Of a stretch of 64,000 nucleotides of DNA, positions 21,441 to 61,895 are shown in pieces (the stretch's first letter is position 1; each line of letters opens with the position of its first letter). A program made the position numbers and the translations under genes. The notes beneath the pieces are model-generated. The model was not told the DNA's origin. It made no database searches and worked only from the letters and a program-made list of their open reading frames with translations. Source of the stretch: Shigella phage SHFML-26; sequence record KX130862; one strand, written 5' to 3'.

Positions 21441-24400
21441 ATGGCTACTTTAAAACAAATACAATTTAAAAGAAGCAAAACTGCAGGTCAACTTCCTGCT
21501 GCTTCAGTATTAGCCGAAGGTGAATTGGCTATTAATTTAAAAGATAAAACAATTTTCACAAAAGATGACTCAGGCAATGTTATAGAATTAGGTTTAAAAT
21601 ATGGAGGAACAATTGATGGTTCTTTAACTGTTAATGGAAATATAATTGGAAATTTAACAGGTAACGCTGCAACTGCAACGAAATTAAAAACAGCACGAAA
21701 AATTAATGGTATATCCTTTGATGGGTCAAAGGATATCACGCTAACTCCATCTGACATAAATGTCAATAGCACAACATTTATAAAAAATAATGGCGAATTA
21801 CCTGTTGATGCTAATTTAGATGAGTATGGGCCTGTTGAAGAATATCTTGGAGTTTGGTCGAAAGCAACTTCAACCAACGCTCAACCAGCAAATAAATTTC
21901 CAGAACAAAATGCTGTAGGTGTGCTAGAAGTATTTGTGGCCGGTCAATTTGCTGGTACTCAGAGATATACAACTAGATACGGAAATGTTTATATTCGTTC
22001 CTTGACTGCTACATGGAACGGAGTAAATGGTCCGTGGAGTGTGTGGCGAAATATTCAATCCGGTACTCGTCCACTGTCAACAACGATTGATCTTAATGAT
22101 CTAGGAGGCGCTGAACACTTTGGTTTGTGGCGAAATAGTTCAAATTCCATTGCTACCTTTGACAGAAATTTCCCAGAAGAAGGATCGTCAGCTCAAGGAC
22201 TTTTAGAAGTATATGAAGGTGGAAACTATTCTCGCACACAGAGATATACGACCAGATTTGGTGTTGTTTATACTCGCTGTCTTACTGCTGCGTGGGATGC
22301 TTCTGCGCCTAAATGGGGACCGTGGCAACAAGTCGGTAATGTCACACCAGCGACTTTTTATGATGGAGATCTGAATGATTTTAAAACTCCTGGGTTATAT
22401 AATATTTTAGGCACTGATGCCGTTATTAATTGTCCTACAGGCGAAGGTTTACCAGCCGTTATTGTTGGTTTGCTGGAAGTTAAACAGCGTGCTTCTGGTG
22501 GTGCTATTTTCCAAAAATTTACTACTGCCGGAACAGGTGCAACTACCCGCGATCGTATTTTTGAGCGCGCATACACCGGCGGTGTTTGGGGTACATGGAA
22601 CGAAGTATATACATCTTACTCTCTTCCAATTACTTTGGGTATGGGTGGTATTAAATCTAACTTAGCAGAGTTAGACTGGCAAGCATTTGATTTTGTTCCT
22701 GGTAGTATGTTTAGCGTTCCTTTGAACAAAATAAAGAACATGCCAGCTAATATGGATTGGGGTACGATTGACGGAAACTTAATTATGTTTTCTGTTGGTC
22801 CTAGCGAGCACACCAGCACAGGACGTACTGTTCAGGTTTGGCGTGGAACTGTATCCCAGACAAACTATCGTTATTTTGTCGTTCGTGTATTCGGTAATCC
22901 AGGGAGTAGAACATGTACAGTTCGACGCGTTGTTCTTGAAGACGGATCACATACTTGGACTGCTAAACAAGATTTTAATGGCGCAGTTAACTTTAACTCT
23001 ACTGTTAACCTTAATAACACTACCACATTTAAAACAGAAGTTAAATTCCGCTCGTTGAATGCATTCCGTATGTATGGCGGAAAATTTGGTACATTTTTAC
23101 GTAATGATGGAGAGAGTCTTTATATTCTTTCCACCGACGAAGATGATCAAGATGGAAACTTTAATACAAATAGACCTTTCCGTTATGAATTAAGAACTGG
23201 TGATGTTACTTTGGGTGGTGTTAGTGGTGCTAACGTTTTAAAATTAAAACGTGATTCTCTCACCGCATTTTTTGGTGGTGATATTAACATGAAAGGCACG
23301 ATGACTTTTGACGCCGGACGTTTAGGATCACGAGATTATTTTAAATTTAACCATTGGGGTGATAGCAATAACGCTCGTGATAACATCATCCAGTTAGAAG
23401 ATAGTCAAGGCGCCCATTTTTCCACTGAACGTACTTTAGCGACAGGTGCAATTAAAACTCGTTTCTTTGGCGAAACATTCACTGATGGTACATTATACCT
23501 AAATCAGATGAATAATAGCTCTGAACGATTCTCTATCAACAATTGGGGAAATTCAGAAGTTGGTCGCGCGGCAGTATTGGAAGTCGGCGATTCAAAAGGT
23601 TATCACTTCTATGCTGAACGCAGGACAGATAACAGTTTGATGTTTGATGTTGCTGGTTCTTTGACCGTGCATGGACCTAGCGGAATAACCATCAAAAACT
23701 CAACTGGTGCACGACATATCTGGTTTAGAGATGATAGCGATGCAGAAAAGGCTGTTATCTGGGCTACAGATGAGGGTATTTTACATATTCGCAATAATCA
23801 TGGGGGTTCATTTAGTCATCACTTCCAGGGTGCAATGATTAAAGTGGGAGAGCGTGTTCCTTATGCCGGAGATCAAGGGCTTATTCGCGGTGAAGTTTCT
23901 GGTGGTGCTTATGTGAATTGGAGAGATCGCCCTGCTGGTTTGTTGCTTGACTGTCAACAAAGCGTTGATAGTGCTCATGCTATTTGGAAAGCGGTTGATT
24001 GGGGGCGTAACTTCATCGCTGCTCTGGACGTTCATTGTCCCGGTGATAGTAATAATACTGCGACAGCGATTCTTCATGTTCAGGCTGCTGATTATCAATT
24101 CCATGCAAATGGGAGCTTTGATGCCAGTGGCAACGGAAACTTTAACGATGTTTATATTCGATCAGACCGTCGCCTTAAAGACAATATAGAAGATTATACC
24201 GGAAATGCGTTAAGTTTGATTGGTAAACTGAAAGTGAAAACTTACGATAAAGTTAAATCTCTTAAGGACCGTGAAATTATCGGTCATGAGATCGGCATTA
24301 TCGCACAGGATTTACAAGAAATATTACCAGAAGCGATTAATATTTCGAAAATTGGCAATCTTGATAAACCAGACGAAGTTCTGACAATTTCTAACTCCGC

Positions 24401-25364: not shown

Positions 25365-26021
25365 ATGGCAGCACCTAGAATATCATTTTCGCCCTCTGAT
25401 ATTCTATTTGGTGTTCTAGATCGCTTGTTCAAAGATAATGCTACCGGGAAAGTTCTTGCTTCCCGGGTAGCTGTCGTAATTCTTTTGTTTATAATGGCGA
25501 TTGTATGGTATAGGGGAGATAGTTTCTTTGAGTACTATAAGCAATCAAAGTATGAAACATACAGTGAAATTATTGAAAAGGAAAGAAATGCACGCTTTGA
25601 ATCTGTCGCCCTGGAACAACTCCAGATAGTTCATATATCATCTGAGGCAGACTTTAGTGCGGTGTATTCTTTCCGCCCTAAAAACTTAAACTATTTTGTT
25701 GATATTATAGCATATGAAGGAAGATTACCTTCAACAATAACTGAAAAATCACTTGGAGGATATCCTGTTGATAAAACTATGGATGAATATACAGTTCATT
25801 TAAATGGACGTCATTATTATTCCAATTCAAAATTTGCTTTTTTACCAACTAAAAAGCCTACTCCCGAAATAAACTACATGTACAGTTGTCCATATTTTAA
25901 TTTGGATAATATCTATGCTGGAACGATAACCATGTACTGGTATAGAAATGATCATATAAGTAATGACCGCCTTGAATCAATATGTGCTCAGGCGGCCAGA
26001 ATATTAGGAAGGGCTAAATAA
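25365..26021 (+). CDS. t: holin
   Basis: 218 aa MAAPRISFSPSDILFGVLDRLFKDNATGKVLASRVAVVILLFIMAIVWYRGD...; single N-terminal TM segment. Confidence 0.95.
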   Translation: MAAPRISFSPSDILFGVLDRLFKDNATGKVLASRVAVVILLFIMAIVWYRGDSFFEYYKQSKYETYSEIIEKERNARFESVALEQLQIVHISSEADFSAVYSFRPKNLNYFVDIIAYEGRLPSTITEKSLGGYPVDKTMDEYTVHLNGRHYYSNSKFAFLPTKKPTPEINYMYSCPYFNLDNIYAGTITMYWYRNDHISNDRLESICAQAARILGRAK

Positions 26022-26294
26022 TTATTTGTTCGTATACATCTCTAGATATCGATATACACCCTCAAAACCCTCGTTGAATTCGTCGATGAGGGTTTTCTTA
26101 TCTTCTTGAGTTAATTCAGAAACAATTTTACGGAATGAATTCTGATTTAACTTTCTACCTTCATGTGTTACTCCAATCTCATTCAGAAATGCAATAAAAT
26201 TAGCACGATTCTCAACAATATCTTCTCTGGAAAATTTAATCAAAATAGACGCAACAGTAATAATTTCACGAACTGTATCAATATTTTTATTCAT
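26022..26294 (-). CDS. asiA: anti-sigma-70 factor AsiA
   Basis: 90 aa MNKNIDTVREIITVASILIKFSREDIVENRANFIAFLNEIG... Confidence 0.9.
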   Translation of the reverse strand: MNKNIDTVREIITVASILIKFSREDIVENRANFIAFLNEIGVTHEGRKLNQNSFRKIVSELTQEDKKTLIDEFNEGFEGVYRYLEMYTNK

Positions 26295-26306
26295 TAACTA
26301 TACCAC

Positions 26307-26459
26307 TCAATTAGTTGACTTTGTTATAATATCATCAGACGCTTGATTTGTAAACTGGTCTGTGTTATTTTCTTCAAAAATTTTTTCTACGAATTCTTTG
26401 AACGACTCACGTTCCTGAGTTACATTGTGCTCGATTACCATTTCAAGATTATAACTCAT
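26307..26459 (-). CDS. small hypothetical protein (50 aa, acidic)
   Basis: ATG overlaps the stop of the upstream ORF (ATGA); hand-translated, coordinates approximate. Confidence 0.35.
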   Translation of the reverse strand: MSYNLEMVIEHNVTQERESFKEFVEKIFEENNTDQFTNQASDDIITKSTN

Positions 26460-26734
26460 TCGAAATAATCTTCAATTTCGTAATCATGGACATAAATCAT
26501 TATAGTTTCTAATACATCATCAATACTTTTTCCTGGAGCTGGAATTACGTAAAAATATCCTGCTTTTGAGAGGTCTTTATAAGTTCCAACCAAGAAATCA
26601 TTATTCTCAAGATGTAGTTCTTCAACTAATTCATTAACAATTAAGTGGTATAAATTTGGTAGAAACTTATATAGCTTTTCTAGAATATCAATTTTGATTG
26701 TATATTGAACCACAGATTGAGAATCAATAATCAT
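26456..26734 (-). CDS. arn: acidic 92-aa protein, Arn-like (anti-restriction)
   Basis: Size, acidity and position upstream of asiA fit T4 Arn; sequence identity not verifiable from memory. Confidence 0.55.
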   Translation of the reverse strand: MIIDSQSVVQYTIKIDILEKLYKFLPNLYHLIVNELVEELHLENNDFLVGTYKDLSKAGYFYVIPAPGKSIDDVLETIMIYVHDYEIEDYFE

Positions 26735-26817
26735 AGACCTTCCCCTTATGTTTCTGTTTGCGATTAGATTCTTTAAACGCTTTCTTCTTATCCTTATGAA
26801 CAGAAGCTTTATTAAAA

Positions 26818-27036
26818 TTATGTTTTGCGACTAAATTGTTCATAATGCTGAATTACCTCTCTTAAACATTTGCATGTGAATGAAAACTTTTTAGCTACAC
26901 CACATTCAAATATATGTTCTCTTAAATCGCGTGTATCGGTATATCCCATCTCAACGATAAAATGCCGTATTAGATTTTTATCTTTATCGTTGAGAGAATT
27001 AAAATAATCGGATTTTGAATTAATTTCCCTGGCCAA
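26818..27036 (-). CDS. hypothetical protein (72 aa)
   Basis: Track ORF, co-oriented. Confidence 0.45.
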   Translation of the reverse strand: MAREINSKSDYFNSLNDKDKNLIRHFIVEMGYTDTRDLREHIFECGVAKKFSFTCKCLREVIQHYEQFSRKT

Positions 27037-27316
27037 ATTGAATCACCTTCAGTTGACGTTTTAGCTCTTTTATCATCTCTTCGTTCATCGCAATATAAAG
27101 ATCGCGTAAAGCAGGTTTTAGCATTCCATTTACTGGAGAACTAAATGGGCACACATAATCTTTTCCTACAAGCTTTTTAGTTAATTCCATATCACAAAAC
27201 TGAAATGCAGGTTCATTAGCATAAATTCCCCAATTAGTTGACATCATTTTATTGGCATATTCCAATGCTTGGATTTGATTAGTAATTCCATCAATTTGAA
27301 ACTTTTTAATATTCAT
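27020..27316 (-). CDS. hypothetical protein (98 aa)
   Basis: Track ORF, co-oriented. Confidence 0.45.
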   Translation of the reverse strand: MNIKKFQIDGITNQIQALEYANKMMSTNWGIYANEPAFQFCDMELTKKLVGKDYVCPFSSPVNGMLKPALRDLYIAMNEEMIKELKRQLKVIQFGQGN

Positions 27317-50145: not shown

Positions 50146-50663
50146 TAATAACCTCGGTCTTGACGAGCGAAGTTTTCAGCATTTTTCAGATAATAAAGTT
50201 TAAAGATTTCTTCAGCCGTAAGACCGAGGCCTTGGAACATGTTCAGAACGAAATGAAGAATATCAATCATTTCGAATTTAATTTCCAACTGGTCTTGTGG
50301 AGACAAATCAGTAATCAGAGTTTCACGTCGTTCACCATGTTGAGCTTTCCAAGGCTTCCATACAGCAGATGCATCTTTTTCACCATTGCTCATACCACCA
50401 AGAGAAGTCAATAGTTCGCGGAATTCATCATCAATATAATCTTTCTGATTACGCAGCCAATCAACAACTTCACCCGCAGTAGCCAAATCATCAGGATGAC
50501 GGTTATATTCAGGTTTATCTTTAGCTAAACGAACCTGCAGAGATTTCTGCATATCAAGCATAACTTGCAACGGGTCTTTTTCATCACCGAGAATATCCCA
50601 GTATTCATTTTGAGCTTTATCAGCGCCTTCAATCAGTTGTGAACATTCATTAAAGTATGCCAT
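50145..50663 (-). CDS. 56: dCTP pyrophosphatase (dCTPase-dUTPase) gp56
   Basis: MAYFNECSQLIEGADKAQNEYWDILGDEKDPLQVMLD...EIFKLYYLKNAENFARQDRGY; track ORF trimmed to Met with AAGGAAA RBS. Confidence 0.85.
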   Translation of the reverse strand: MAYFNECSQLIEGADKAQNEYWDILGDEKDPLQVMLDMQKSLQVRLAKDKPEYNRHPDDLATAGEVVDWLRNQKDYIDDEFRELLTSLGGMSNGEKDASAVWKPWKAQHGERRETLITDLSPQDQLEIKFEMIDILHFVLNMFQGLGLTAEEIFKLYYLKNAENFARQDRGY

Positions 50664-50734
50664 TATTTTTCCTTTCAATTCATGGGTTAGTAGATTAATT
50701 ATACAATAAATATATAAAGCAATAAGGAGGATAT

Positions 50735-50935
50735 ATGGTACAAAAATTAATGGCACTTGTTAATGCCATAAAAGGTAATAAAAAACGTATAGCTTTTACT
50801 ATTTCTGCTATGGTAGGAATTTTACTCTGGAATTTTGTTTTATCACCAATTGCTATTGCTCATGGTGTTAATATTCCAGTAATTACTCTTGATACATTCG
50901 TAGATTTAGCATTTGCTTTAGTTGGGTTAATTTAA
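50735..50935 (+). CDS. small hydrophobic protein (66 aa) on the opposite strand
   Basis: Strong SD AAGGAGG 6 nt upstream of ATG; two predicted TM segments; sits in the 56-61 intergenic gap. Confidence 0.5.
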   Translation: MVQKLMALVNAIKGNKKRIAFTISAMVGILLWNFVLSPIAIAHGVNIPVITLDTFVDLAFALVGLI

Positions 50936-51960
50936 ATCTTAGCGTATTTAGATAGCCGCATTTTAGCCATCAACCCTTGGGCAATATTATTTTTCATATA
51001 TTCCATAATTTGTTTAGGGGTTGCACCTTCCTTTCTAATCATATCATTAACATCTTTTGATTTCCAGGGAGATTTATCCCAAAACATAACCCTTTCTCCT
51101 GCATCAACTAATTTAGTCATTCGTTTAATAGTGTCAGGGTGACGAGGTTCATTATCTAAAACCCATACACGTCTATCTTTAAATGGAACAATTTCTAGGT
51201 CTAATTGACCACCCGTAATAGCTATACCATTTTCAATAAAAAGTGAATCTATAGGTCCTTCTAGAACATATACATCACCATCTTTGACTCGTTCGACTCC
51301 ATAAATTTTTGTTGCCTCAGGATAAGCTTTGATGGTGATATATTTTTGAGGAGCATCTTTCTTTAATGCACGTCCTTGAAAAGACTCAGCTTTTCCGTTA
51401 GCATTATAAATTGGAATAACAAGACGAGGCTCAGGTATTTCCTTTTTATATGTTCCTGGCGCTATACTATTAACTAATTTAGGCCATTCGGTTGTAAACC
51501 AAAGATATTTCCATTTATCCTTTGGAATACAACGAGCTTTTACATATTTTATAATTGGATGGTCTTCCGCCAGTTTATCTAATCTAATGCATGACGGAAG
51601 AGATTTAATTATTTTCTTCTCAGGTTGTTTAGGAAGTTCTTTAGGTTTTTCTACTGGACGACTTTTACCTTTTTCCTTTCTTATTTCAAAGATATACTCA
51701 CGATATAAATCAGGTTCAAACTCCTTTAAATATATTCCGATTGGTGCATGATAGTTACAGTTATAACAATGAATATTTCCTTCATTATTATCGCCATAAT
51801 ACCATCCACGGGCTTTATTTTGGTCGGTTTTTGAATCTCCACAAACAGGACATCTAAACCGTAATTTAAAAGTTGAACTATTATTTACTTGTGTGAATTT
51901 AGGTAAATGAGCTAATGCACGGTATGCAAACTCATTATCAATCCAAGGTATTGATGACAT
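50932..51960 (-). CDS. 61: DNA primase gp61
   Basis: 342 aa with N-terminal zinc-ribbon CPVCGDS...CYNCNYH and TOPRIM region. Confidence 0.9.
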   Translation of the reverse strand: MSSIPWIDNEFAYRALAHLPKFTQVNNSSTFKLRFRCPVCGDSKTDQNKARGWYYGDNNEGNIHCYNCNYHAPIGIYLKEFEPDLYREYIFEIRKEKGKSRPVEKPKELPKQPEKKIIKSLPSCIRLDKLAEDHPIIKYVKARCIPKDKWKYLWFTTEWPKLVNSIAPGTYKKEIPEPRLVIPIYNANGKAESFQGRALKKDAPQKYITIKAYPEATKIYGVERVKDGDVYVLEGPIDSLFIENGIAITGGQLDLEIVPFKDRRVWVLDNEPRHPDTIKRMTKLVDAGERVMFWDKSPWKSKDVNDMIRKEGATPKQIMEYMKNNIAQGLMAKMRLSKYAKI

Positions 51961-51962
51961 TT

Positions 51963-52127
51963 TTACTCTTCTTTTTCTTTAGATTCCTCTTTTTTCTTTT
52001 TAGGAATCTGTTCAGGACCTTTATTTACTACAGCGCCTGACGTTGTTCCAGTGGAGATATTTTCAGGATTACCACCTGAATCTCCAGCTACCATATCTTC
52101 TTTAATAAATTCTTTATATGTTTTCAT
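51963..52127 (-). CDS. small hypothetical protein (about 54 aa, Lys/Glu-rich tail)
   Basis: Hand-translated ORF directly upstream of gene 61. Confidence 0.4.
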   Translation of the reverse strand: MKTYKEFIKEDMVAGDSGGNPENISTGTTSGAVVNKGPEQIPKKKKEESKEKEE

Positions 52128-52128
52128 A

Positions 52129-52755
52129 TTAACCTCTATTCATAAAAGCATTAAAAATTTGGTCATCAATAGAAACATCTACTTTAGACTGTTTTTCTGA
52201 TGGTAATTCATATCCACATATTACAATTTTGTGATCAATATCAAAATACACAGAAGCAATATGATTAATGATGTTTTCAGTAAAGTCTAAATCAACATCA
52301 ATATCTTTTTGACCACAGCCCAAAGGATAAATAATGCGAGTAATTCGATTATCTTTAACAAAGATTCCACCGACATACTCTGTGCTGTGTTTAAAGTCTA
52401 CACGCCGACGAAATGAAAAATATTCAGGCTCTTTATGAGCTCTGCTCATAGGACACAACGAGTAACTAGAATAAGAGATGTCAAATCCTACGCCTTCGAT
52501 ATGAGCCAAAGTGTCATGATTAAACCAATTATAATCGTACGCCAAATCCATTAGATTATAATATGTAAAAGGCACCGGATTAACATCATTAGTCACAAGC
52601 ATATAATTAGCAACTGCTATAATTTCATTGTTTTTAACGAATACAAACCGTGATTGATGTGAATGACCCGGACCCGCGTTTTCACGATTAATGATATAAC
52701 ACTGGGCACCTTTATATTTGTATGTATCTTTACACTTGTGCATTTGATAGAGCAT
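52129..52755 (-). CDS. hypothetical protein (208 aa), 61.2-like by position
   Basis: Track ORF; position and length fit T4 gene 61.2. Confidence 0.5.
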   Translation of the reverse strand: MLYQMHKCKDTYKYKGAQCYIINRENAGPGHSHQSRFVFVKNNEIIAVANYMLVTNDVNPVPFTYYNLMDLAYDYNWFNHDTLAHIEGVGFDISYSSYSLCPMSRAHKEPEYFSFRRRVDFKHSTEYVGGIFVKDNRITRIIYPLGCGQKDIDVDLDFTENIINHIASVYFDIDHKIVICGYELPSEKQSKVDVSIDDQIFNAFMNRG

Positions 52756-53605: not shown

Positions 53606-55033
53606 CTAAAATTTTAATTCATTTGCCAAAGCATCTAACTGAGCTCGAGCGGATTCGTTTCTTTGATAGCGATTCTGTTCAGCCTGAATCTGCTGTGAAC
53701 CTGCTACTTCGTTCACTTCAGTTGGAGTAGAATCTTGTTCAATTTCTACCCATTTCTGATTTCCTTTTTGAACACCCATCAAAAACTTATTCCATTTATT
53801 CTTATCACCGTATCGTGATTTGATTTGCTTAATAAGTTGTTGTTCAGCAGCTGCTAGCTCCTCGGTTTCAATGACCGCAAGCATAAAATCGGCTGTTGCT
53901 GGAAGGCCGGCAGATTCTGCAATATCGCTCATGTTAACATCAGAAGAGTCCCAAGCTTGTTTACCAACCTGTGCTGCGGTCCAAAGAACAGTTTCGGTTT
54001 CAACAGCCAGAGCACGCAATTCCTCTGCGATAGCTTTAACAGTTGTGTAACTATTTTCTGAATAAACTCTGATGCGGCAAGATTTACAAATACCCAGATA
54101 GTCAACAATAATGATTGTTGGAACAAAATTCTTCTTGAGCTTCAATTCATTCAAGAGAGACCTGAATGTATTAGCGTCTGCTCCACCAGTAGGATACTGT
54201 TTAACGATTAAACGTCCAAGAGTAGATTTCTCACGCCATTTTTCCATTTTTCCTTTATACTCAGCGTAAGAAATATGCCCATCATCAATGTCATCAAGAG
54301 AAACATCAAGCATATTAGCATCAATACGCTTAGCACAGACTTCTTCTGCCATTTCCATGGAAATGTAAAGAACATTATGTCCGAGCTGCAAATAATCTGC
54401 TGCCAATGAACACAGACCTAATGACTTACCGACGTTAACACCAGCCATTAAAACGTTCAGTGTTCCAGTTTCAGCTCCACCTTTAGTAATTTTATTTAGA
54501 ATTTTGAGTCTAAATGGAACCTTACGAGCTTTATTCATATAAGATAGCCAACGTGCTTCGTAGTCATCCATCCAATCATGACCAACGTAACTATCAAATG
54601 AAATTGATAATGCTTGGCGCATGATGTCAGGAATAGCACCTACATCTGGCATTTTCTTATTTCGTTTTTCCGGAGGAAGCTCAGCATTAGTTTGAATTTC
54701 AATTATTTTAGACGTAGCATTAAACATCGCCCTTTGCTGAACATATTTTTCTGTTTCTTTTACTAACCAGCTATGGTCTTCTGGAGAATCGGCTAGTTTC
54801 GAAATAAGTGTTTTTACACCAGAATATTCTGTTTCAGTAAATGAACTATTTTCTAATGCAACATTTAACGCATTAATAGATGGAACGCTATGGTACTCAT
54901 TAACATGAGATTTAATTAATTTGAATGTATTTTTAGCTGGACCACTTTCAAAATATTCTGAATCCATATATGGCCAAACTTTTGAAAAATAAGCTTGATC
55001 AAATATGAGATGAGAAAGAATAATTTCTACCAC
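53606..55033 (-). CDS. 41: replicative DNA helicase gp41
   Basis: 475 aa DnaB-family with Walker A GVNVGKS. Confidence 0.95.
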   Translation of the reverse strand: MVEIILSHLIFDQAYFSKVWPYMDSEYFESGPAKNTFKLIKSHVNEYHSVPSINALNVALENSSFTETEYSGVKTLISKLADSPEDHSWLVKETEKYVQQRAMFNATSKIIEIQTNAELPPEKRNKKMPDVGAIPDIMRQALSISFDSYVGHDWMDDYEARWLSYMNKARKVPFRLKILNKITKGGAETGTLNVLMAGVNVGKSLGLCSLAADYLQLGHNVLYISMEMAEEVCAKRIDANMLDVSLDDIDDGHISYAEYKGKMEKWREKSTLGRLIVKQYPTGGADANTFRSLLNELKLKKNFVPTIIIVDYLGICKSCRIRVYSENSYTTVKAIAEELRALAVETETVLWTAAQVGKQAWDSSDVNMSDIAESAGLPATADFMLAVIETEELAAAEQQLIKQIKSRYGDKNKWNKFLMGVQKGNQKWVEIEQDSTPTEVNEVAGSQQIQAEQNRYQRNESARAQLDALANELKF

Positions 55034-55042
55034 ACTTACTCC

Positions 55043-55405
55043 TTAAAAGAATTTAAATTTTTTCTTTGACCTTTTATTAAATGCATCTTGTAGTTGCATT
55101 GTAATACATTTTTCTACATGAGGAGCTAACTCAGCTTTTCTTTCTTGGTCAAGAACAGCAAAGTCCATTACGACTTTTCCATCAACCCAATCTAATTTTG
55201 TCACATACACAATGTGTGTAGAACCGTCTTCTAGTTTAATGACAATCTCCTGGATAACATTTTCCATAGCGGATTTAATTATCTTAAGAGACTCATTAAA
55301 AAGACGTTCTTTTCTTTCTTCTTCCCCCTCCGAAGAGGGGGATTCATCGATAATTTCTAGATCTAAATCTAAATCATCTTTATTCATTAAATTCTTCCAT
55401 ATCAC
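55043..55405 (-). CDS. 40: acidic 120-aa protein, gp40-like by position
   Basis: Between uvsX and 41 as T4 gene 40. Confidence 0.55.
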   Translation of the reverse strand: MIWKNLMNKDDLDLDLEIIDESPSSEGEEERKERLFNESLKIIKSAMENVIQEIVIKLEDGSTHIVYVTKLDWVDGKVVMDFAVLDQERKAELAPHVEKCITMQLQDAFNKRSKKKFKFF

Positions 55406-56561
55406 TTAACTGCTCGAGGTCAGTTTCTAAATCAGCAGCTGATTTACTTTTACTTTCTGGAGATTTAAATTTTTCAACCTTTGAGTTAATCAATTCATCA
55501 ACTTCAGCTTCAACAATTTCATTACTATCAATAGCACCTAACTGATAAGCACGTTTAATAGCATCTCGGAATGGTTGATGCTTAAATAAAGGACCCCAGA
55601 ATGTAGTGCAGTTGGTATCTTTTGCACGCCAAGATTTTTCTTCGCGAATCATCTCACCGGTTTCTTCATCAAGAAATTCACGAGCATACCAGCCATTTTT
55701 AGGTTTTACCACGAATCCTAATTCTAGAGCCATATCTAACAATCCAGAATAAGGATCGATACCACCGTCAAATTTAACATCAATAAAGAATTTACTTTTT
55801 TCTTTAACGGTACGAGATTTTTCTACATTTAGAACAAATTGATACCCCTGAAGATCGGAACCATCTTTAATCTGGCGCTTACCGATAATGAATACAGTAT
55901 CAGCCGAATACATTACGCCTGTACCACCTGTCATCACGGTTTTACTAAACATTTCGATTGTTTCAATTGTATGGTTAACCGCAACACATGGAATATTTTT
56001 AATGCTAAAATAAGGAGTAACAATACGGAATAATGACTTCAGTGATTTAGCACGAGTCATATCTGCCACAGATTTTTCATTCAAGGCATCTTCCGTTTCT
56101 TTCTTAGAAGCCATATTACCAATTGAGTCGATGAATACAATAACTTTTTCACCACGCTCAATAGCTTCAAGCTGATTCACCATATCAATTTTCAGCTGTT
56201 CAACTGACTGGATTGGTGTGTGAATTACTCGTTCCGGGTCAACTCCCATGGATCGCAAATAAGCTGGAGTAATACCAAATTCGCTATCATAGAATAGACA
56301 AACCGCGTCAGGATATTTGTTCAAATACGCCGCAACCATAGTCAAAGACATATTTGATTTAAAGTGTTTAGAAGGACCTGCAAAAATGGTTAAACCAGAC
56401 TGCATACCACCGTCAATCGCACCTGAAATAGCGATATTAAGCATTGGGATTTTTGTACGGATTACATCCTTTTCATTAAAGAATTTAGATGTAGTCAGTT
56501 CAGCAGTCATTTTAGAAGTGGAAGCTTTAATCAAACGGGATTTTAAATCTGCAATAGACAT
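55380..56561 (-). CDS. uvsX: RecA-like recombinase UvsX
   Basis: 393 aa MSIADLKSRLIKASTSKMTAELTTSKFFNEKD...; C-terminus identical to T4 UvsX as recalled. Confidence 0.95.
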   Translation of the reverse strand: MSIADLKSRLIKASTSKMTAELTTSKFFNEKDVIRTKIPMLNIAISGAIDGGMQSGLTIFAGPSKHFKSNMSLTMVAAYLNKYPDAVCLFYDSEFGITPAYLRSMGVDPERVIHTPIQSVEQLKIDMVNQLEAIERGEKVIVFIDSIGNMASKKETEDALNEKSVADMTRAKSLKSLFRIVTPYFSIKNIPCVAVNHTIETIEMFSKTVMTGGTGVMYSADTVFIIGKRQIKDGSDLQGYQFVLNVEKSRTVKEKSKFFIDVKFDGGIDPYSGLLDMALELGFVVKPKNGWYAREFLDEETGEMIREEKSWRAKDTNCTTFWGPLFKHQPFRDAIKRAYQLGAIDSNEIVEAEVDELINSKVEKFKSPESKSKSAADLETDLEQLSDMEEFNE

Positions 56562-56638
56562 TCATTTTTTCCATAGGCATCATTATATTTTCCTCACTGG
56601 TTAAAGATAGAGTAATTATAACACAATAAATTTAGGCA

Positions 56639-57487
56639 TTAATCAACTGCTATTGGATGAATAGCATTAAACTTATGAAACGCTTCTGATTTTTCTTTGC
56701 GCGAAACACACATGCGAAGAACCTTTAATGGCTCGTCTTCTTCACCTAATGATTTTCGTTTTTCAATATTAGAAGTTTTCCAACGAGCTTGCTCTGGAAA
56801 CTCTCTATTGATTTGCTCAAGCGCTCTATTATGTTTAGAATTACTACGAATTGAGCTACATCCGCCTGGAGCTTGCGCTTTTCCAGATACAACCAGATAT
56901 TTGAACAAGGCCAAATGCGGATAACCTTGATTAATTAAATTGAGAAATGCATACATATCTTCGCATAAATCAATTTTTCCATACCCAATTTGTTCTGTTG
57001 TAAGTTTTCCAAGGTCATACCAAGTATTCGTGAATCCATATGAATTTTCACGATAATTACCCCAAGATGAAGTAATTTTAAAAATTGGTAAACGAGCATG
57101 ACCATGATAATACCCGCAATCCATGGCATCTTCAACGTATTGAATCAATTCATAGAACTGTTCACGAGTTAGCTGATTAATTTTATCTACGCAGCGACGA
57201 TCATCTTTCTTTCGCATTGAACTCATACGAATAGTAGTATCATCATCAATCATCCAAATTCGTTGACCTGCATACATATCAGTAATTGCTTTACGAGTAC
57301 CAGCAATTCCGTTAACATCATCAGGAATAGTTATAATTTTAGCTCTAGACCCGTAAGCGTCATAATAAGCTTTTTCTTCGTGTTCACGCACTACAATATG
57401 AGGTTCATAATCAGTCGGAAACATATCAAGGGCAGAAACTGCCCCTACGCGTTGATAGCTTGGAATTACGAATTGAATCATTTCCAC
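56639..57487 (-). CDS. putative glycosyltransferase (DXD motif) at the position of T4 beta-glucosyltransferase
   Basis: 282 aa with WMIDDDTT DXD-like motif; does not match T4 beta-gt as recalled; adjacent to gene 42. Confidence 0.5.
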   Translation of the reverse strand: MEMIQFVIPSYQRVGAVSALDMFPTDYEPHIVVREHEEKAYYDAYGSRAKIITIPDDVNGIAGTRKAITDMYAGQRIWMIDDDTTIRMSSMRKKDDRRCVDKINQLTREQFYELIQYVEDAMDCGYYHGHARLPIFKITSSWGNYRENSYGFTNTWYDLGKLTTEQIGYGKIDLCEDMYAFLNLINQGYPHLALFKYLVVSGKAQAPGGCSSIRSNSKHNRALEQINREFPEQARWKTSNIEKRKSLGEEDEPLKVLRMCVSRKEKSEAFHKFNAIHPIAVD

Positions 57488-58218
57488 TCACCGTTATAAT
57501 CTTTTTTCGCAATATGAGTTTCGCCAGTTTTCCACCAATGGTCAACCAAATAAAAATGACGGGAATACACATGAAGGCTCCCGACATTCCATATAATGGA
57601 ACCTGCTTTATACTGACGAGTTGAATCACCTGCATTCAAATCAGATACTAATTTATCTAGTACGTATTTTTGCCATGCATAATCATTACGGAATCCGAAA
57701 ACCACGTCATTTGAACGCATGCTTACTACTGCATTGACTTTCTTGTCACGAATCAGATACTGTACGGTATTCGTACACATGAAATCTGACATACCATCTT
57801 TATTGTAGTCAAACTGCATAGATGGACGAGTATAAATCATGATACCACGTCGAGAATCAGGATTTTGACCAAGTTCAGCTAGACACATATCATATTGAGC
57901 ATAGTTATCTTCTGACCAGATAGCCCAACCATAATTCGAGTTAATTTCACCTTTAGAAGATGCTACCTGCTGCCAAATCTTTGGTGTTTCACCTGGAATA
58001 TCTTTAACAAACAAGCTCTTAGATTTATACCATTCAAGTTCACGCTGGATGTATTCATCATTAAGAGCGCCAAAAATAAACGGTTCATCTGCTACAAATG
58101 ATGCGCCAATAATTTCAATAGTTTTAACGCCAGTTTTATCAACTACGAAATCTTTTTCTTTTAATGCAAGCCCCAAATGAAGACGGATTTCTTCAACTGT
58201 CATAGAGTCACTAATCAT
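57478..58218 (-). CDS. 42: dCMP hydroxymethylase gp42
   Basis: 246 aa thymidylate-synthase-fold enzyme MISDSMTVEEIRLHLGLALKEKDFVVDKTGVKTIEIIGASF... Confidence 0.9.
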   Translation of the reverse strand: MISDSMTVEEIRLHLGLALKEKDFVVDKTGVKTIEIIGASFVADEPFIFGALNDEYIQRELEWYKSKSLFVKDIPGETPKIWQQVASSKGEINSNYGWAIWSEDNYAQYDMCLAELGQNPDSRRGIMIYTRPSMQFDYNKDGMSDFMCTNTVQYLIRDKKVNAVVSMRSNDVVFGFRNDYAWQKYVLDKLVSDLNAGDSTRQYKAGSIIWNVGSLHVYSRHFYLVDHWWKTGETHIAKKDYNGEWK

Positions 58219-58371
58219 TTAAACCTCAATTGATACATTCATATTTAACTTGTAACAGTAATAAACCCCAACCTAAAATAATAGTTGGAATCATAAGAGG
58301 AACCGTTACACTATAGTATATACTTATTATAATCATCAAGATTAAAAGCAATACTGCTAAAATTTTGCTTT

Positions 58372-58623
58372 TCATTCCTTCTCTCTGATGATAATTACCT
58401 GATTTGGCTGTGCAGACTTTTTGGTTTCACCCGCAATTGACCAAATAAAGGTAATAAACCAACCAATAATTGACCAGTTAAACAGTAAAGATGTAAAAAA
58501 GATTCCTACTGTCGATTTTGACCCACGCATCAAGGCGATGAACCATGGAAGCATGTATATAATAATAGCCAACACGCCTGAAACTAAAACCATAAAAATT
58601 GAACCTGCTACTAAAGTTTCCAT
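58372..58623 (-). CDS. imm: immunity (superinfection exclusion) membrane protein Imm
   Basis: 83 aa with two TM segments METLVAGSIFMVLVSGVLAIIIYMLPWFIALMRG... Confidence 0.8.
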   Translation of the reverse strand: METLVAGSIFMVLVSGVLAIIIYMLPWFIALMRGSKSTVGIFFTSLLFNWSIIGWFITFIWSIAGETKKSAQPNQVIIIREKE

Positions 58624-58630
58624 GTTTTCC

Positions 58631-59023
58631 TCACTTAGTCAAATTTTTTACGCATGAATTATAAGAATTCACTACATACTCCATCGGAGCATTTTTACCA
58701 GTACGCCATTGGTAATTATTAGCCCAATTAGCCCAAAGTTCGGCACAGTAGTTTTCAATTTTTTCTTCGCGTGTAATTACATCTGAATTACGATACGCTT
58801 GAGCAGATTCATCTGGACGAATAGCTTCGTCAAAATTCGCCTGCATTTGTTCTACTGTCTGTTTTGGAGCCTCTTTATAACACTTAACATTAGGATTATA
58901 AAATTTGCTTGAACAATTTACAATTTTTCCTACATCAGACTGATTTACTACCGGTCCTTGAGCTACACAACCAGTAAGACCTAATGCAATAACCAAAATA
59001 GCGATTTTCATTTTACTCTCCAA
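58631..59023 (-). CDS. putative lipoprotein (130 aa)
   Basis: Signal peptide with lipobox LGLTGC. Confidence 0.5.
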   Translation of the reverse strand: MESKMKIAILVIALGLTGCVAQGPVVNQSDVGKIVNCSSKFYNPNVKCYKEAPKQTVEQMQANFDEAIRPDESAQAYRNSDVITREEKIENYCAELWANWANNYQWRTGKNAPMEYVVNSYNSCVKNLTK

Positions 59024-59044
59024 ATCCGTATCAGTTGATAGTTG

Positions 59045-59075
59045 TATAGTACCATGGAAGAACAGGGATGTAAAC
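59045..59075 (-). promoter_or_regulatory. T4-type early promoter
   Basis: Reverse complement contains GTTTACA -35 and TACTAT -10 in the conserved motif. Confidence 0.5.
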
Positions 59076-59195
59076 CGTTTTAGTTGAAAAATTTTTAAAT
59101 TGAATCCAAAGGGTCCAGAATCATCTGTTTTTCATAAGTATAGATTTATATTACTTGTATGAAAAAGGGACCCGGAGGTCCCTAGATTTATTCTA

Positions 59196-61706
59196 TCAGC
59201 CAAACAGGAAGTCTAACGAAGCTTTTTCTTCATAGTCCATACCTGCCGATTCACACATACCTGCAAGCGGCTTAACAAACGATTTTTGGAACAAAGTTGA
59301 GTAGTCAATCCAAGATAGTACGTCAGAACGAATTTCTTTTGGAAGTTCTGTACCTGATGGCCAAGCAATGCACTTGTCACCAAATGGATTTCCTTCACGT
59401 AATGGAAGAACCATTACTTTATTTCCATCCAAAATTGGAGCTACACCTAAACCACTAACAGCTCGACGATAAGTTAGCACACCACGAATATGGAATGGGC
59501 ATTTAAATCCTGGCCAACCTTTATCATCATATTTCGCTATATCGTTCGCAGTTTTTACTTCAGCAATAACTTTATAGTCAAGTTGACGATATTCTTTCTC
59601 GAAGTTCTTGTAGTATTCTTGGACAGACTCTTCACCTTCCTGAAGAATACGACGAATACTTTCTTCGAGAGCTTCTTGCACCGCTTTTGGTGTTGAACTC
59701 TGCTGAGTTTCCATACCCATGATTTTTAGATGCGGTTCGGCAAATCGCTTATCTTCCATATCATAAACGTTCAGAGCATAACGTTTTTTCGCTTTCCAAA
59801 ATCCACCAACACCCTTTGAACCAAGCGGAGGGCAAGAAATAGCTTCACGGTCCATATGCATCAGATGCTCGCGGTTATTCATATAATCACATAACTCACG
59901 ATATGCAACATCAATCATAGGTTCCATCTTTTTCTTACCAAACTGATTCATGAATTCAACTAAATCATTTTGTTCTTTAAAGCGGTCAAGACCTACTTTT
60001 TCAATTACTTTATCTACACAAACATATACCGAATCAGTATCACCTGCTGCGATGAAATCTTCACCATTAGTTCCACATACTTTATTCAGATATTCATTAA
60101 TTTTGCGAGCAATCCATTGAATACCGACTTGACCGAAAATTGTGATAGCAGTAGCATTTCGCAAATCATAGTAGCGGAAATGAATATTACCAAGAGCACC
60201 ATAAAGACTGTTAATAAGAATTTTACGGTTCAACTGATTTGTGTTAGCAAGTGTAGCAGCTTTTTCACATTCTTCAATCAGACTGTTAAGAACAGATTCG
60301 GTGTAATTCGATAATTCGTTTAAGAAATCATCATTGAACTTAACATATCGTTCAACTTCCGGTTTAGTTGAACAGGACCCTGCGCCTTTCATAATAATCT
60401 TTTTAATAGCTTCGGCATTCATTTCTTCAGCGAACATTTTCTTTTTCCAATCTTTACGCTGGAAAAATACTTTAGCGATTTCCTTTGGAATGATACCTTC
60501 TTGATGCTTATCATACATCCATCCATTCGGAGAACAAGAATATTCATCACTCGGTTTAGGAGCTGTTCCTGCGATATATTCATGAATTGGATGAACTTTA
60601 AACTGCCCACGAATAGTCTCAGGACTAATGTTAACCTGACGAATAATGCTCGGATACAGAGACGTCAAGTCAAAACTCATAATATATCGACGAGCAATTG
60701 GTTTAGGTTCAAATACAAATGCACCCGGAAAACTCTGTTTAACGTGCGAACCTTGTTGAGGAATAACCTTATGTTCACCTTTCAATGAGTTAAAAATAAT
60801 AGCATCCCAAGTTTTAATAGGACTCATTACACCAGAAAAAGGCATTTTAGCATAATAAGACATACTTAAAACTAGATCGATAAACCCGCGAATTTTATCA
60901 ATTGCTTGAACTGATTCTACGTCAATGATGTTATAACTAATGTATCGTTGATGATTAGTCTCACGAAGTTTATTAATAGGACCGTCGTATGGTAATTTAC
61001 CTTTTTTGGTTTCATGTTGAGCAACTGATTCCAAAGAGAATGACGGCAAATTAGTAAATGCGAATTTCTTATACAAATCTAAATAATCAAGAATAGATAC
61101 GCCATCAATAGAATAAATTTCTTTGCTACCGTACATATTTTGAATTAGTTTAGATTTTACCCGACCGATTGGAGAGAAACGTTTCATACTGCGTTCACCT
61201 AGAATCATTTTAACGCGATTCATAATATATGGAACGTCAAACCCCTCAATATTCCAACCAGTAAAAATAGCAGGTCGTTTCTGTTCCCAGAGATTGATAT
61301 ATTCCATGAGCATATCACGCTCATTATCGAATGGCATATAAATTACTCGGTCAAGAATTTCTTGAGGAACTTCATCACCACCTTCACAGTCAAGCTTAGC
61401 AGCTAACTTTGCATCCCATTTTGATACTGAACCGTACATTGAATTCAAAAGGTCGAAAACATAAAAACGATCATCAATTGAATCGTAATGAGTGATAGCA
61501 TCAATTTCATATTCAGCTTTCATTGGGTCAGGAAATTTATCACCAGTAACCTCAATGTCACAGTTAGCTACACGAACAAATTTTCGGTCATAAACAATTT
61601 CTGAACCATACGTATCACTGATATAAGCGAGTTTAAAATCGTTCATACCGAGAGCTTCGAGACCGATGTCTTCCATTCGTTTCATCCAATCTCGAGCATA
61701 TTTCAT
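59196..61706 (-). CDS. 43: DNA polymerase gp43 (ORF as called; canonical N-terminal ~63 codons lie upstream and are interrupted)
   Basis: 836-aa family-B polymerase starting MKYARDWMKRMEDIGLEALGMNDFKLAY..., corresponding to T4 gp43 from about residue 63. Confidence 0.9.
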   Translation of the reverse strand: MKYARDWMKRMEDIGLEALGMNDFKLAYISDTYGSEIVYDRKFVRVANCDIEVTGDKFPDPMKAEYEIDAITHYDSIDDRFYVFDLLNSMYGSVSKWDAKLAAKLDCEGGDEVPQEILDRVIYMPFDNERDMLMEYINLWEQKRPAIFTGWNIEGFDVPYIMNRVKMILGERSMKRFSPIGRVKSKLIQNMYGSKEIYSIDGVSILDYLDLYKKFAFTNLPSFSLESVAQHETKKGKLPYDGPINKLRETNHQRYISYNIIDVESVQAIDKIRGFIDLVLSMSYYAKMPFSGVMSPIKTWDAIIFNSLKGEHKVIPQQGSHVKQSFPGAFVFEPKPIARRYIMSFDLTSLYPSIIRQVNISPETIRGQFKVHPIHEYIAGTAPKPSDEYSCSPNGWMYDKHQEGIIPKEIAKVFFQRKDWKKKMFAEEMNAEAIKKIIMKGAGSCSTKPEVERYVKFNDDFLNELSNYTESVLNSLIEECEKAATLANTNQLNRKILINSLYGALGNIHFRYYDLRNATAITIFGQVGIQWIARKINEYLNKVCGTNGEDFIAAGDTDSVYVCVDKVIEKVGLDRFKEQNDLVEFMNQFGKKKMEPMIDVAYRELCDYMNNREHLMHMDREAISCPPLGSKGVGGFWKAKKRYALNVYDMEDKRFAEPHLKIMGMETQQSSTPKAVQEALEESIRRILQEGEESVQEYYKNFEKEYRQLDYKVIAEVKTANDIAKYDDKGWPGFKCPFHIRGVLTYRRAVSGLGVAPILDGNKVMVLPLREGNPFGDKCIAWPSGTELPKEIRSDVLSWIDYSTLFQKSFVKPLAGMCESAGMDYEEKASLDFLFG

Positions 61707-61895
61707 TGATGGTAAATTTTTGAGGTAGCGCTAGTTTTTACCATAGATGTCTTTGTACTTTGACTCTTCCTTACAATGCCTAAACATAGTTGGAAGATAT
61801 TCTACTTCACGAGTACGTTCCTTTCCGTTTTCATCAATATAACGTTCAACAATGTTATTTCCGACTGTTTCAATAGAGATATAAAATTCTTTCAT
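61707..61895 (-). other. 43: interrupted 5' segment of gene 43 (54 codons, TAG, 8 codons, in frame with the main ORF)
   Basis: Reverse complement encodes [65 protein letters not shown]; coordinates approximate. Confidence 0.6.

Follow-up and report, generated by a model that had tools for sequence, protein, structure and literature searches.

The closest described counterpart of the gene analyzed here is ba-gt (also called g-gt or ggt) of phages T2 and T6, whose original cloning paper is reportedly that of Winkler and Rueger (Nucleic Acids Res 1993). The link between this gene and its function comes from recent deletion studies in T6. The T2/T6 product, a PF20691 protein, transfers glucose onto alpha-glucosyl-hydroxymethyl-cytosine (alpha-glucosyl-hmC) to form gentiobiosyl-hmC (PMC13216743). 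T6 Δba-gt contained only alpha-glucosyl-hmC and was more sensitive to the Brig1 glycosylase (PMC11078745), and the DNA of T6 Δg-gt was a substrate of BapA (bioRxiv 10.64898/2026.02.25.707755). The T6 protein, also called TAGT, was predicted with AF3 to adopt a GT-A fold and forms a sister cluster to GT2 (PMC13216743, NAR 2026). The combination of alpha-GT and TAGT is the commonest Tequatrovirus arrangement, and that of alpha-GT and beta-GT in T4 is the exception (PMC13216743). HPLC/MS of ten natural Tequatroviruses with alpha-GT and TAGT and without beta-GT revealed alpha-5-gentiobiosyl-methyl-dC and no beta-glucosyl form (PMC13390438). In the same study, hmC made up about one-third and gentiobiosyl-hmC about two-thirds in the DNA of TB37, a member of the Durham group, with only a trace of alpha-glucosyl-hmC, and the Geo/EL/BGP group, distinguished by a dam-like gene, showed a 1:2:2 ratio; among these Durham phages, the presence of dam accompanies a lower gentiobiose fraction (PMC13390438). 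The subject of the "contingency loci" preprint is agt, not ggt. Publications to date (Nature 2024; NAR 2026; AEM 2026) thus already describe the gene together with its phenotype, its predicted fold class, and the synteny with T4 beta-gt.

The beta-glucosyltransferase of T4 (beta-gt, PF09198) is encoded in the same slot as ggt. The two enzymes have the UDP-glucose donor, a DNA-linked acceptor, and the beta linkage in common, and both diversify hmC glucosylation beyond alpha-gt. They differ in fold, which is GT-B in T4 beta-gt and predicted to be GT-A in the ggt enzyme, and in the acceptor, which is the hmC hydroxyl for T4 beta-gt and the 6-OH of alpha-glucose for the ggt enzyme. In the work of Iyer and Aravind, the TAGT (TET-associated glycosyltransferase) family is reported to owe its name to members associated with TET/JBP dioxygenases, enzymes that generate 5hmC on DNA post-replication. 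The protein studied here shares the I-P-S-Y-x-R, T-R, and D-D-D motifs and a predicted GT-A fold with this PF20691 family, but the hmC of its phage would originate from the gp42 pathway at the nucleotide level, and its acceptor would be a sugar already on the base. The inverting GT2-type GT-A glycosyltransferases SpsA (1h7l), TarP (6h1j), AvpGT (9jma), and BcsA (4p00) are also among the closest known systems.

We analyzed a stretch of 64,000 nucleotides from Shigella phage SHFML-26 (KX130862), hereafter called the window. The six-frame ORF list and reading of the DNA revealed an uninterrupted minus-strand ORF at 56639..57487 with a GTG start, a length of 282 aa, and a TAA stop at 56639-56641. 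In the annotations of the orthologs in T2, Ec_YwIITB1, TB37, and Geo, the start lies two codons inside the GTG at 57487. The corresponding ATG (57479-57481, minus strand) overlaps the stop codon of gene 42 as ATGA and has a Shine-Dalgarno-like sequence, GGTGAG, upstream. Because the ortholog starts correspond to this ATG and are accompanied by the ATGA overlap and GGTGAG, ggt most likely starts at 57481 and encodes a protein of 280 aa, not 282 aa, and the GTG at 57487 is probably unused. The same overlap couples gene 42 translationally to ggt. The initial annotation had described a 282-aa ORF between uvsX and gene 42; the ORF proved to be real and its flanks were confirmed, whereas its start is likely the internal ATG, and its location on the minus strand had been left unstated.

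The flanking genes are gene 42, encoding dCMP hydroxymethylase (57478..58218, minus strand; 97.6% identical to T4 gp42), and uvsX, encoding the recombinase (55380..56561, minus strand; 90.5% identical to T4 UvsX). The latter is the downstream neighbor of ggt and serves as a boundary marker outside the modification pathway. T2, T6, TB37, Geo, and YwIITB1 likewise have ggt between gene 42 and uvsX. The window gene (56639..57481, minus strand) differs from that of T2 at 41 nucleotides, 35 of which are at third codon positions and four of which change an amino acid, and from that of Ec_YwIITB1 at 12 nucleotides with no change in the protein. These substitutions show that the ORF is under purifying selection, and it is not a chance ORF. 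Two plus-strand ORFs inside ggt (56697-56924 and 57263-57499) were taken as chance occurrences, being unsupported and overlapping a gene that is clearly under purifying selection.

The whole ggt protein matched a single PHROGs family, PHROG 842, named "beta-glucosyl-HMC-alpha-glucosyltransferase" (E=1.9e-89). It also matched the Pfam family PF20691 over model positions 2-205 of 205 with a score of 38.8 bits, above the gathering cutoff of 27.5. A weak Pfam match to PF01877 "RNA_binding" was dismissed because its score of 12.8 bits (E=0.15) was below the cutoff of 26.9. A megablast search detected ggt at 90–99% nucleotide identity in 473 phage records, including T2, RB33, Shfl2, and many Tequatrovirus isolates, and many of these records annotate the gene as beta-glucosyl-HMC-alpha-glucosyltransferase. 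The window protein has the same length as the T2/T6 enzyme (280 aa) and was near-identical over its full length to the characterized enzymes and to those of natural isolates, with 280, 278, 276, and 273 of 280 residues identical to the proteins of Ec_YwIITB1, TB37, T2, and Geo, respectively, and 274 of 280 to that of each of the two T6 records. From the sequence searches, the ggt product is identified with high confidence as the T2/T6-type beta-glucosyl-HMC-alpha-glucosyltransferase (ba-GT, g-gt, or TAGT), which would act with the hmC pathway to generate gentiobiosyl-hmC. None of the evidence contradicted this assignment.

In contrast, the protein showed no detectable similarity to T4 beta-gt by BLASTP (E=3.4), and the Pfam search gave no match to the T4 beta-gt family PF09198 at E<=10 or to the T4 alpha-gt family PF11440. 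No sequence-level match to the family models of CAZy GT2 or Pfam Glycos_transf_2 was obtained, and a PDB sequence search yielded no relative, the best hits being unrelated RNA-binding proteins at E=0.78; no solved structure of the family exists. The proposal in the initial annotation that the protein does not resemble T4 beta-gt and may provide the second glucosylation of the T2/T6 type was thus borne out by both family matches and by the comparison with the T2 and T6 enzymes.

To compare the locus with that of T4, the window was aligned to the T4 genome by blastn. Positions 55000-56549 of the window aligned with T4 22006-23555 (uvsX), and positions 57496-59200 aligned with T4 25497-27201 (gene 42 onward). 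The 946-bp cassette between them (56550..57495) had no DNA homology to T4, and its T4 counterpart is a 1,941-bp segment containing the homing endonuclease gene segA and beta-gt. The breaks in homology with T4 coincide precisely with the start of uvsX and the stop of gene 42, and hence the cassette was swapped cleanly relative to segA and beta-gt. At 36.5%, the GC content of ggt matched that of uvsX and gene 42 (36–37%; window, 35.4%), whereas T4 beta-gt (30.9%) and segA lay at 30–31% (L003:3571-5456). That beta-gt and segA have a lower GC content than ggt and the conserved genes around it points to acquisition of the arrangement seen in T4. The agreement of the GC content of ggt with that of its neighbors fits the published view of alpha-GT and TAGT as the common arrangement.

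A scan of 56300-58500 for promoters and terminators was uninformative: 15 promoter-like sites were detected where 9.7 ± 3.4 were expected, and one terminator-like site where 0.9 was expected. The only terminator-like match in this region, in codons 12-18 of ggt (57427-57447, minus strand), is a hairpin of 9 bp, TAGGGGCAG-TTT-CTGCCCTTG, which is GC-rich and precedes a T-rich stretch. The hairpin lies directly after the codon for the invariant R11 and is conserved in T2 and T6.

To identify conserved residues, 51 relatives, nearly all with PF20691, were collected by a profile search, and 46 of them, some only 13–25% identical to the query, were aligned. Residues I6, R11, R63, D79, D80, and D81 were invariant in all 46 relatives, and all are present in the window protein. 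P7 (44/46), Y9 (42/46), R32, Y39, T62, and R212 (45/46) were conserved in at least 90% of the relatives, and position 175 was Asp in 40 of the 46. The window copy is full-length, with Q10, R11, R63, the DDD triplet, D175, and R212 intact.

An AlphaFold2 model generated from the alignment of 46 relatives was confident (mean pLDDT 92.9, pTM 0.91) and showed an alternating beta/alpha core. The triplet D79-D80-D81 (57239..57247, minus strand), a DXD-type motif encoded by (GAT)3, immediately follows strand E74-78 in the model, which is the canonical position of the DXD motif in GT-A folds. This triplet is part of WMIDDDTT (57233..57256, minus strand), residues 76-83 of the 280-aa protein. This predicted structure supports a GT-A fold for the ggt protein. 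The DXD-like motif WMIDDDTT and the GT-A-type glycosyltransferase fold proposed in the initial annotation are supported by the invariance of DDD and its placement in the model and agree with the AF3-based description of the T6 protein. DDD79-81 is a candidate site for the divalent metal and the UDP diphosphate. The I-P-S-Y-x-R motif (residues 6-11; 57449..57466, minus strand), located after strand beta-1 (E3-7 in the model), resembles the "P-x-Y-N" nucleotide-binding loop of GT2-type enzymes, and the loop ending in R11 and T62-R63 are candidate nucleotide-binding elements. D175 (56957..56959, minus strand), at the N-terminus of helix H174-184, belongs to a C-E-D motif that can be likened to the "TED" motif of inverting GT2 enzymes, and it is a candidate catalytic base by this analogy.

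We searched the window for partners of ggt in the modification pathway. In addition to gene 42, gene 56 encoding dCTPase/dUTPase was found at 50148..50663 on the minus strand by tblastn with T4 gp56 (73.8% identity, E=2e-84). As both genes are present in the window, hmC DNA is expected, in agreement with what had been proposed from gp42 and gp56 beforehand. These two partners are shared with T2 and T6. No match to alpha-gt was obtained in the window at E<=1e-3 by tblastn with the T4 or D5505 query, a result that is uninformative because the expected locus lies past the end of the window. In all three related genomes examined (D5505, Ec_YwIITB1, and Geo), alpha-gt is present and adjoins gene 47, about 11–12 kb beyond ggt; T4 alpha-gt also adjoins gene 47, roughly 12 kb beyond beta-gt. 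Neither T4 beta-gt nor T4 dam, encoding DNA adenine methyltransferase, had a tblastn match anywhere in the window. The gap between gene 56 and gene 61 leaves no room for dam (50663-52755, from gene 56 to sp), which is the TB37-type organization and not the T4/Geo-type.

In the proposed pathway, gp56 would remove dCTP and gp42 would make the hm-dCMP precursor, so that only hm-dCTP would be incorporated, giving DNA with 5-hydroxymethyl-cytosine. The alpha-glucosyltransferase, presumably encoded outside the window about 11 kb beyond ggt, would add an alpha-linked glucose to most hmC. The ggt enzyme would then attach a further glucose, donated by UDP-glucose, at the 6-OH of the first glucose through a beta-1,6 linkage to form gentiobiosyl-hmC. 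It would be a presumably metal-dependent, inverting enzyme with a GT-A fold. Inversion of configuration would be required because the donor, alpha-linked UDP-glucose, yields a beta product, and an inverting mechanism matches the GT2-like GT-A fold.

TB37 is among the closest relatives of the window, with 95.9% identity over 24 kb. Since the two phages share 278/280 residues of the enzyme and dam is missing from the window as it is from TB37, the DNA of this phage is predicted, by correlation and not by mechanism, to be T6-like, with gentiobiosyl-hmC accounting for roughly two-thirds, bare hmC for one-third, and mono-alpha-glucosyl-hmC for very little. The two-thirds figure assumes that the enzyme allele sets the gentiobiose level, and other factors may contribute to it because Geo, whose enzyme differs at only seven residues, gives the 1:2:2 ratio. 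The predicted chemistry, namely gentiobiosyl-hmC and bare hmC with no beta-glucosyl-hmC, in turn predicts which defenses would be evaded or triggered. The gentiobiosyl pattern would mask alpha-glucosyl-hmC and is predicted to protect the DNA from the Brig1 and BapA glycosylases, and the DNA is predicted to remain a target of GmrSD/BrxU-type enzymes. Such predictions may be of use for typing therapeutic or collection phages and add no new biology.

We also considered that the ggt protein might be a functional replacement for T4 beta-gt that glucosylates bare hmC directly as a first-step transferase. It occupies the exact slot of beta-gt, and a beta linkage is required of it as of beta-gt. Moreover, solitary TAGT homologs, accompanied by neither alpha- nor beta-GT, occur in 288 of 753 phage genomes (NAR 2026, PMC13216743), and thus some members of the TAGT family may act directly on the base. 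For the window protein, which is 98–99% identical to the T2, T6, and Durham enzymes, this activity is nevertheless very improbable, as the T6 deletion strain retains only alpha-glucosyl-hmC (PMC11078745), and beta-glucosyl-hmC is absent from the DNAs of T2, T6, and the Durham Tequatroviruses, in which 25–33% of hmC stays bare, a fraction that an enzyme acting directly on hmC should have glucosylated (bioRxiv 10.64898/2026.02.25.707755; PMC13390438). Transfer of another sugar, or formation of a linkage other than that made by the T2/T6 enzyme, seems even less probable. Sugar specificity cannot be read from the sequence alone, and related Mosigvirus phages make mono- and di-arabinosylated cytosines (PMC13216743; PMC13390438); however, the TB37 enzyme differs at only two of 280 residues and TB37 DNA carries gentiobiose by HPLC/MS (PMC13390438), and gene 42 of the window, at 97.6% identity, corresponds to T4 dCMP hydroxymethylase and not to the 5-hydroxy-dCMP synthase of the arabinose pathway.

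The lesions found in records of laboratory stocks, namely the codon-10 TAG of T6 MH550421, the loss of one Asp of DDD in T6 AP018814, and R11H in T2, raise the question of whether ggt is an inactive remnant in this phage. The window copy is full-length with Q10, R11, R63, DDD, D175, and R212, its product is identical to that of another natural isolate, and its substitutions follow the pattern of purifying selection; inactivity is accordingly rated as being just as improbable as an altered sugar. The assignment of ggt as the T2/T6-type beta-glucosyl-HMC-alpha-glucosyltransferase is thus the preferred reading.

The few substitutions between the window protein and the T2 enzyme include position 11, where the window has the family consensus Arg and the two T2 records (PV958097, L001:4007-4849; AP018813, L009:307-1149), which come from the USA and Japan, have His. 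Arg at position 11 is shared by the window with all 46 diverse members of the family, four natural isolates, and another 15 cluster members. T6 MH550421 (L005:4138-4980) has TAG at codon 10 of ggt, a base unique to that record, and its CDS is annotated from Met20 with a length of 261 aa. T6 AP018814 (L012:911-1750), whose 168,697-bp sequence is also recorded as NC_054907, has lost one GAT of (GAT)3, resulting in WMIDD-TT and a 279-aa protein. R11H, the codon-10 TAG, and the Asp deletion were all absent from the window, the four natural isolates, and the 15 further cluster members. The lesions in the T6 records reflect either drifted laboratory stocks or record errors, and the (GAT)3 repeat might be prone to slippage because one GAT is missing in AP018814.

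The gentiobiosyl-hmC content of T2 is about 5%, as against about 72% in T6 (bioRxiv 10.64898/2026.02.25.707755), and R11H is, speculatively, a candidate cause of the low content in T2. A tentative and rather doubtful extension is that the window allele, with Q10, R11, and intact DDD, represents the fully active wild type and that the classical laboratory phages carry damaged or weakened alleles. If this were true, R11H would explain the long-known difference in gentiobiose between T2 and T6 despite their almost identical enzymes, and the identity of ggt would be unchanged.

An anomaly was observed in gene 43, encoding DNA polymerase (about 59196-61894, minus strand), which has an in-frame TAG within 61690-61745. 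Compared with T4 and T6, the gene contains three single-A insertions, CT[A]GCGCT[A]CCTCAAAAATTT[A]CCA, and a single G-to-T change, all in a stretch of about 45 nt. With a net gain of +3, the frame is restored, but "NCAPQKFPSMKD" becomes "N*RYLKNLPSMKY", and the longest ORF is 836 aa instead of 898. The variant was present in none of 475 phage records, and the best matches listed all differ from the window at exactly these four positions. The TAG could stem from an amber or engineered mutant, from miscalled bases in modified DNA, or from an artifact.

Between gene 42 and imm, a very hydrophobic ORF of 49 aa (MKSKILAVLLLILMIIISIYY...) was found at 58226-58375 on the minus strand. This ORF is absent from the T4 RefSeq annotation, though the T4 DNA there is 95.6% identical, and it is annotated in T2, TB37, and Geo.
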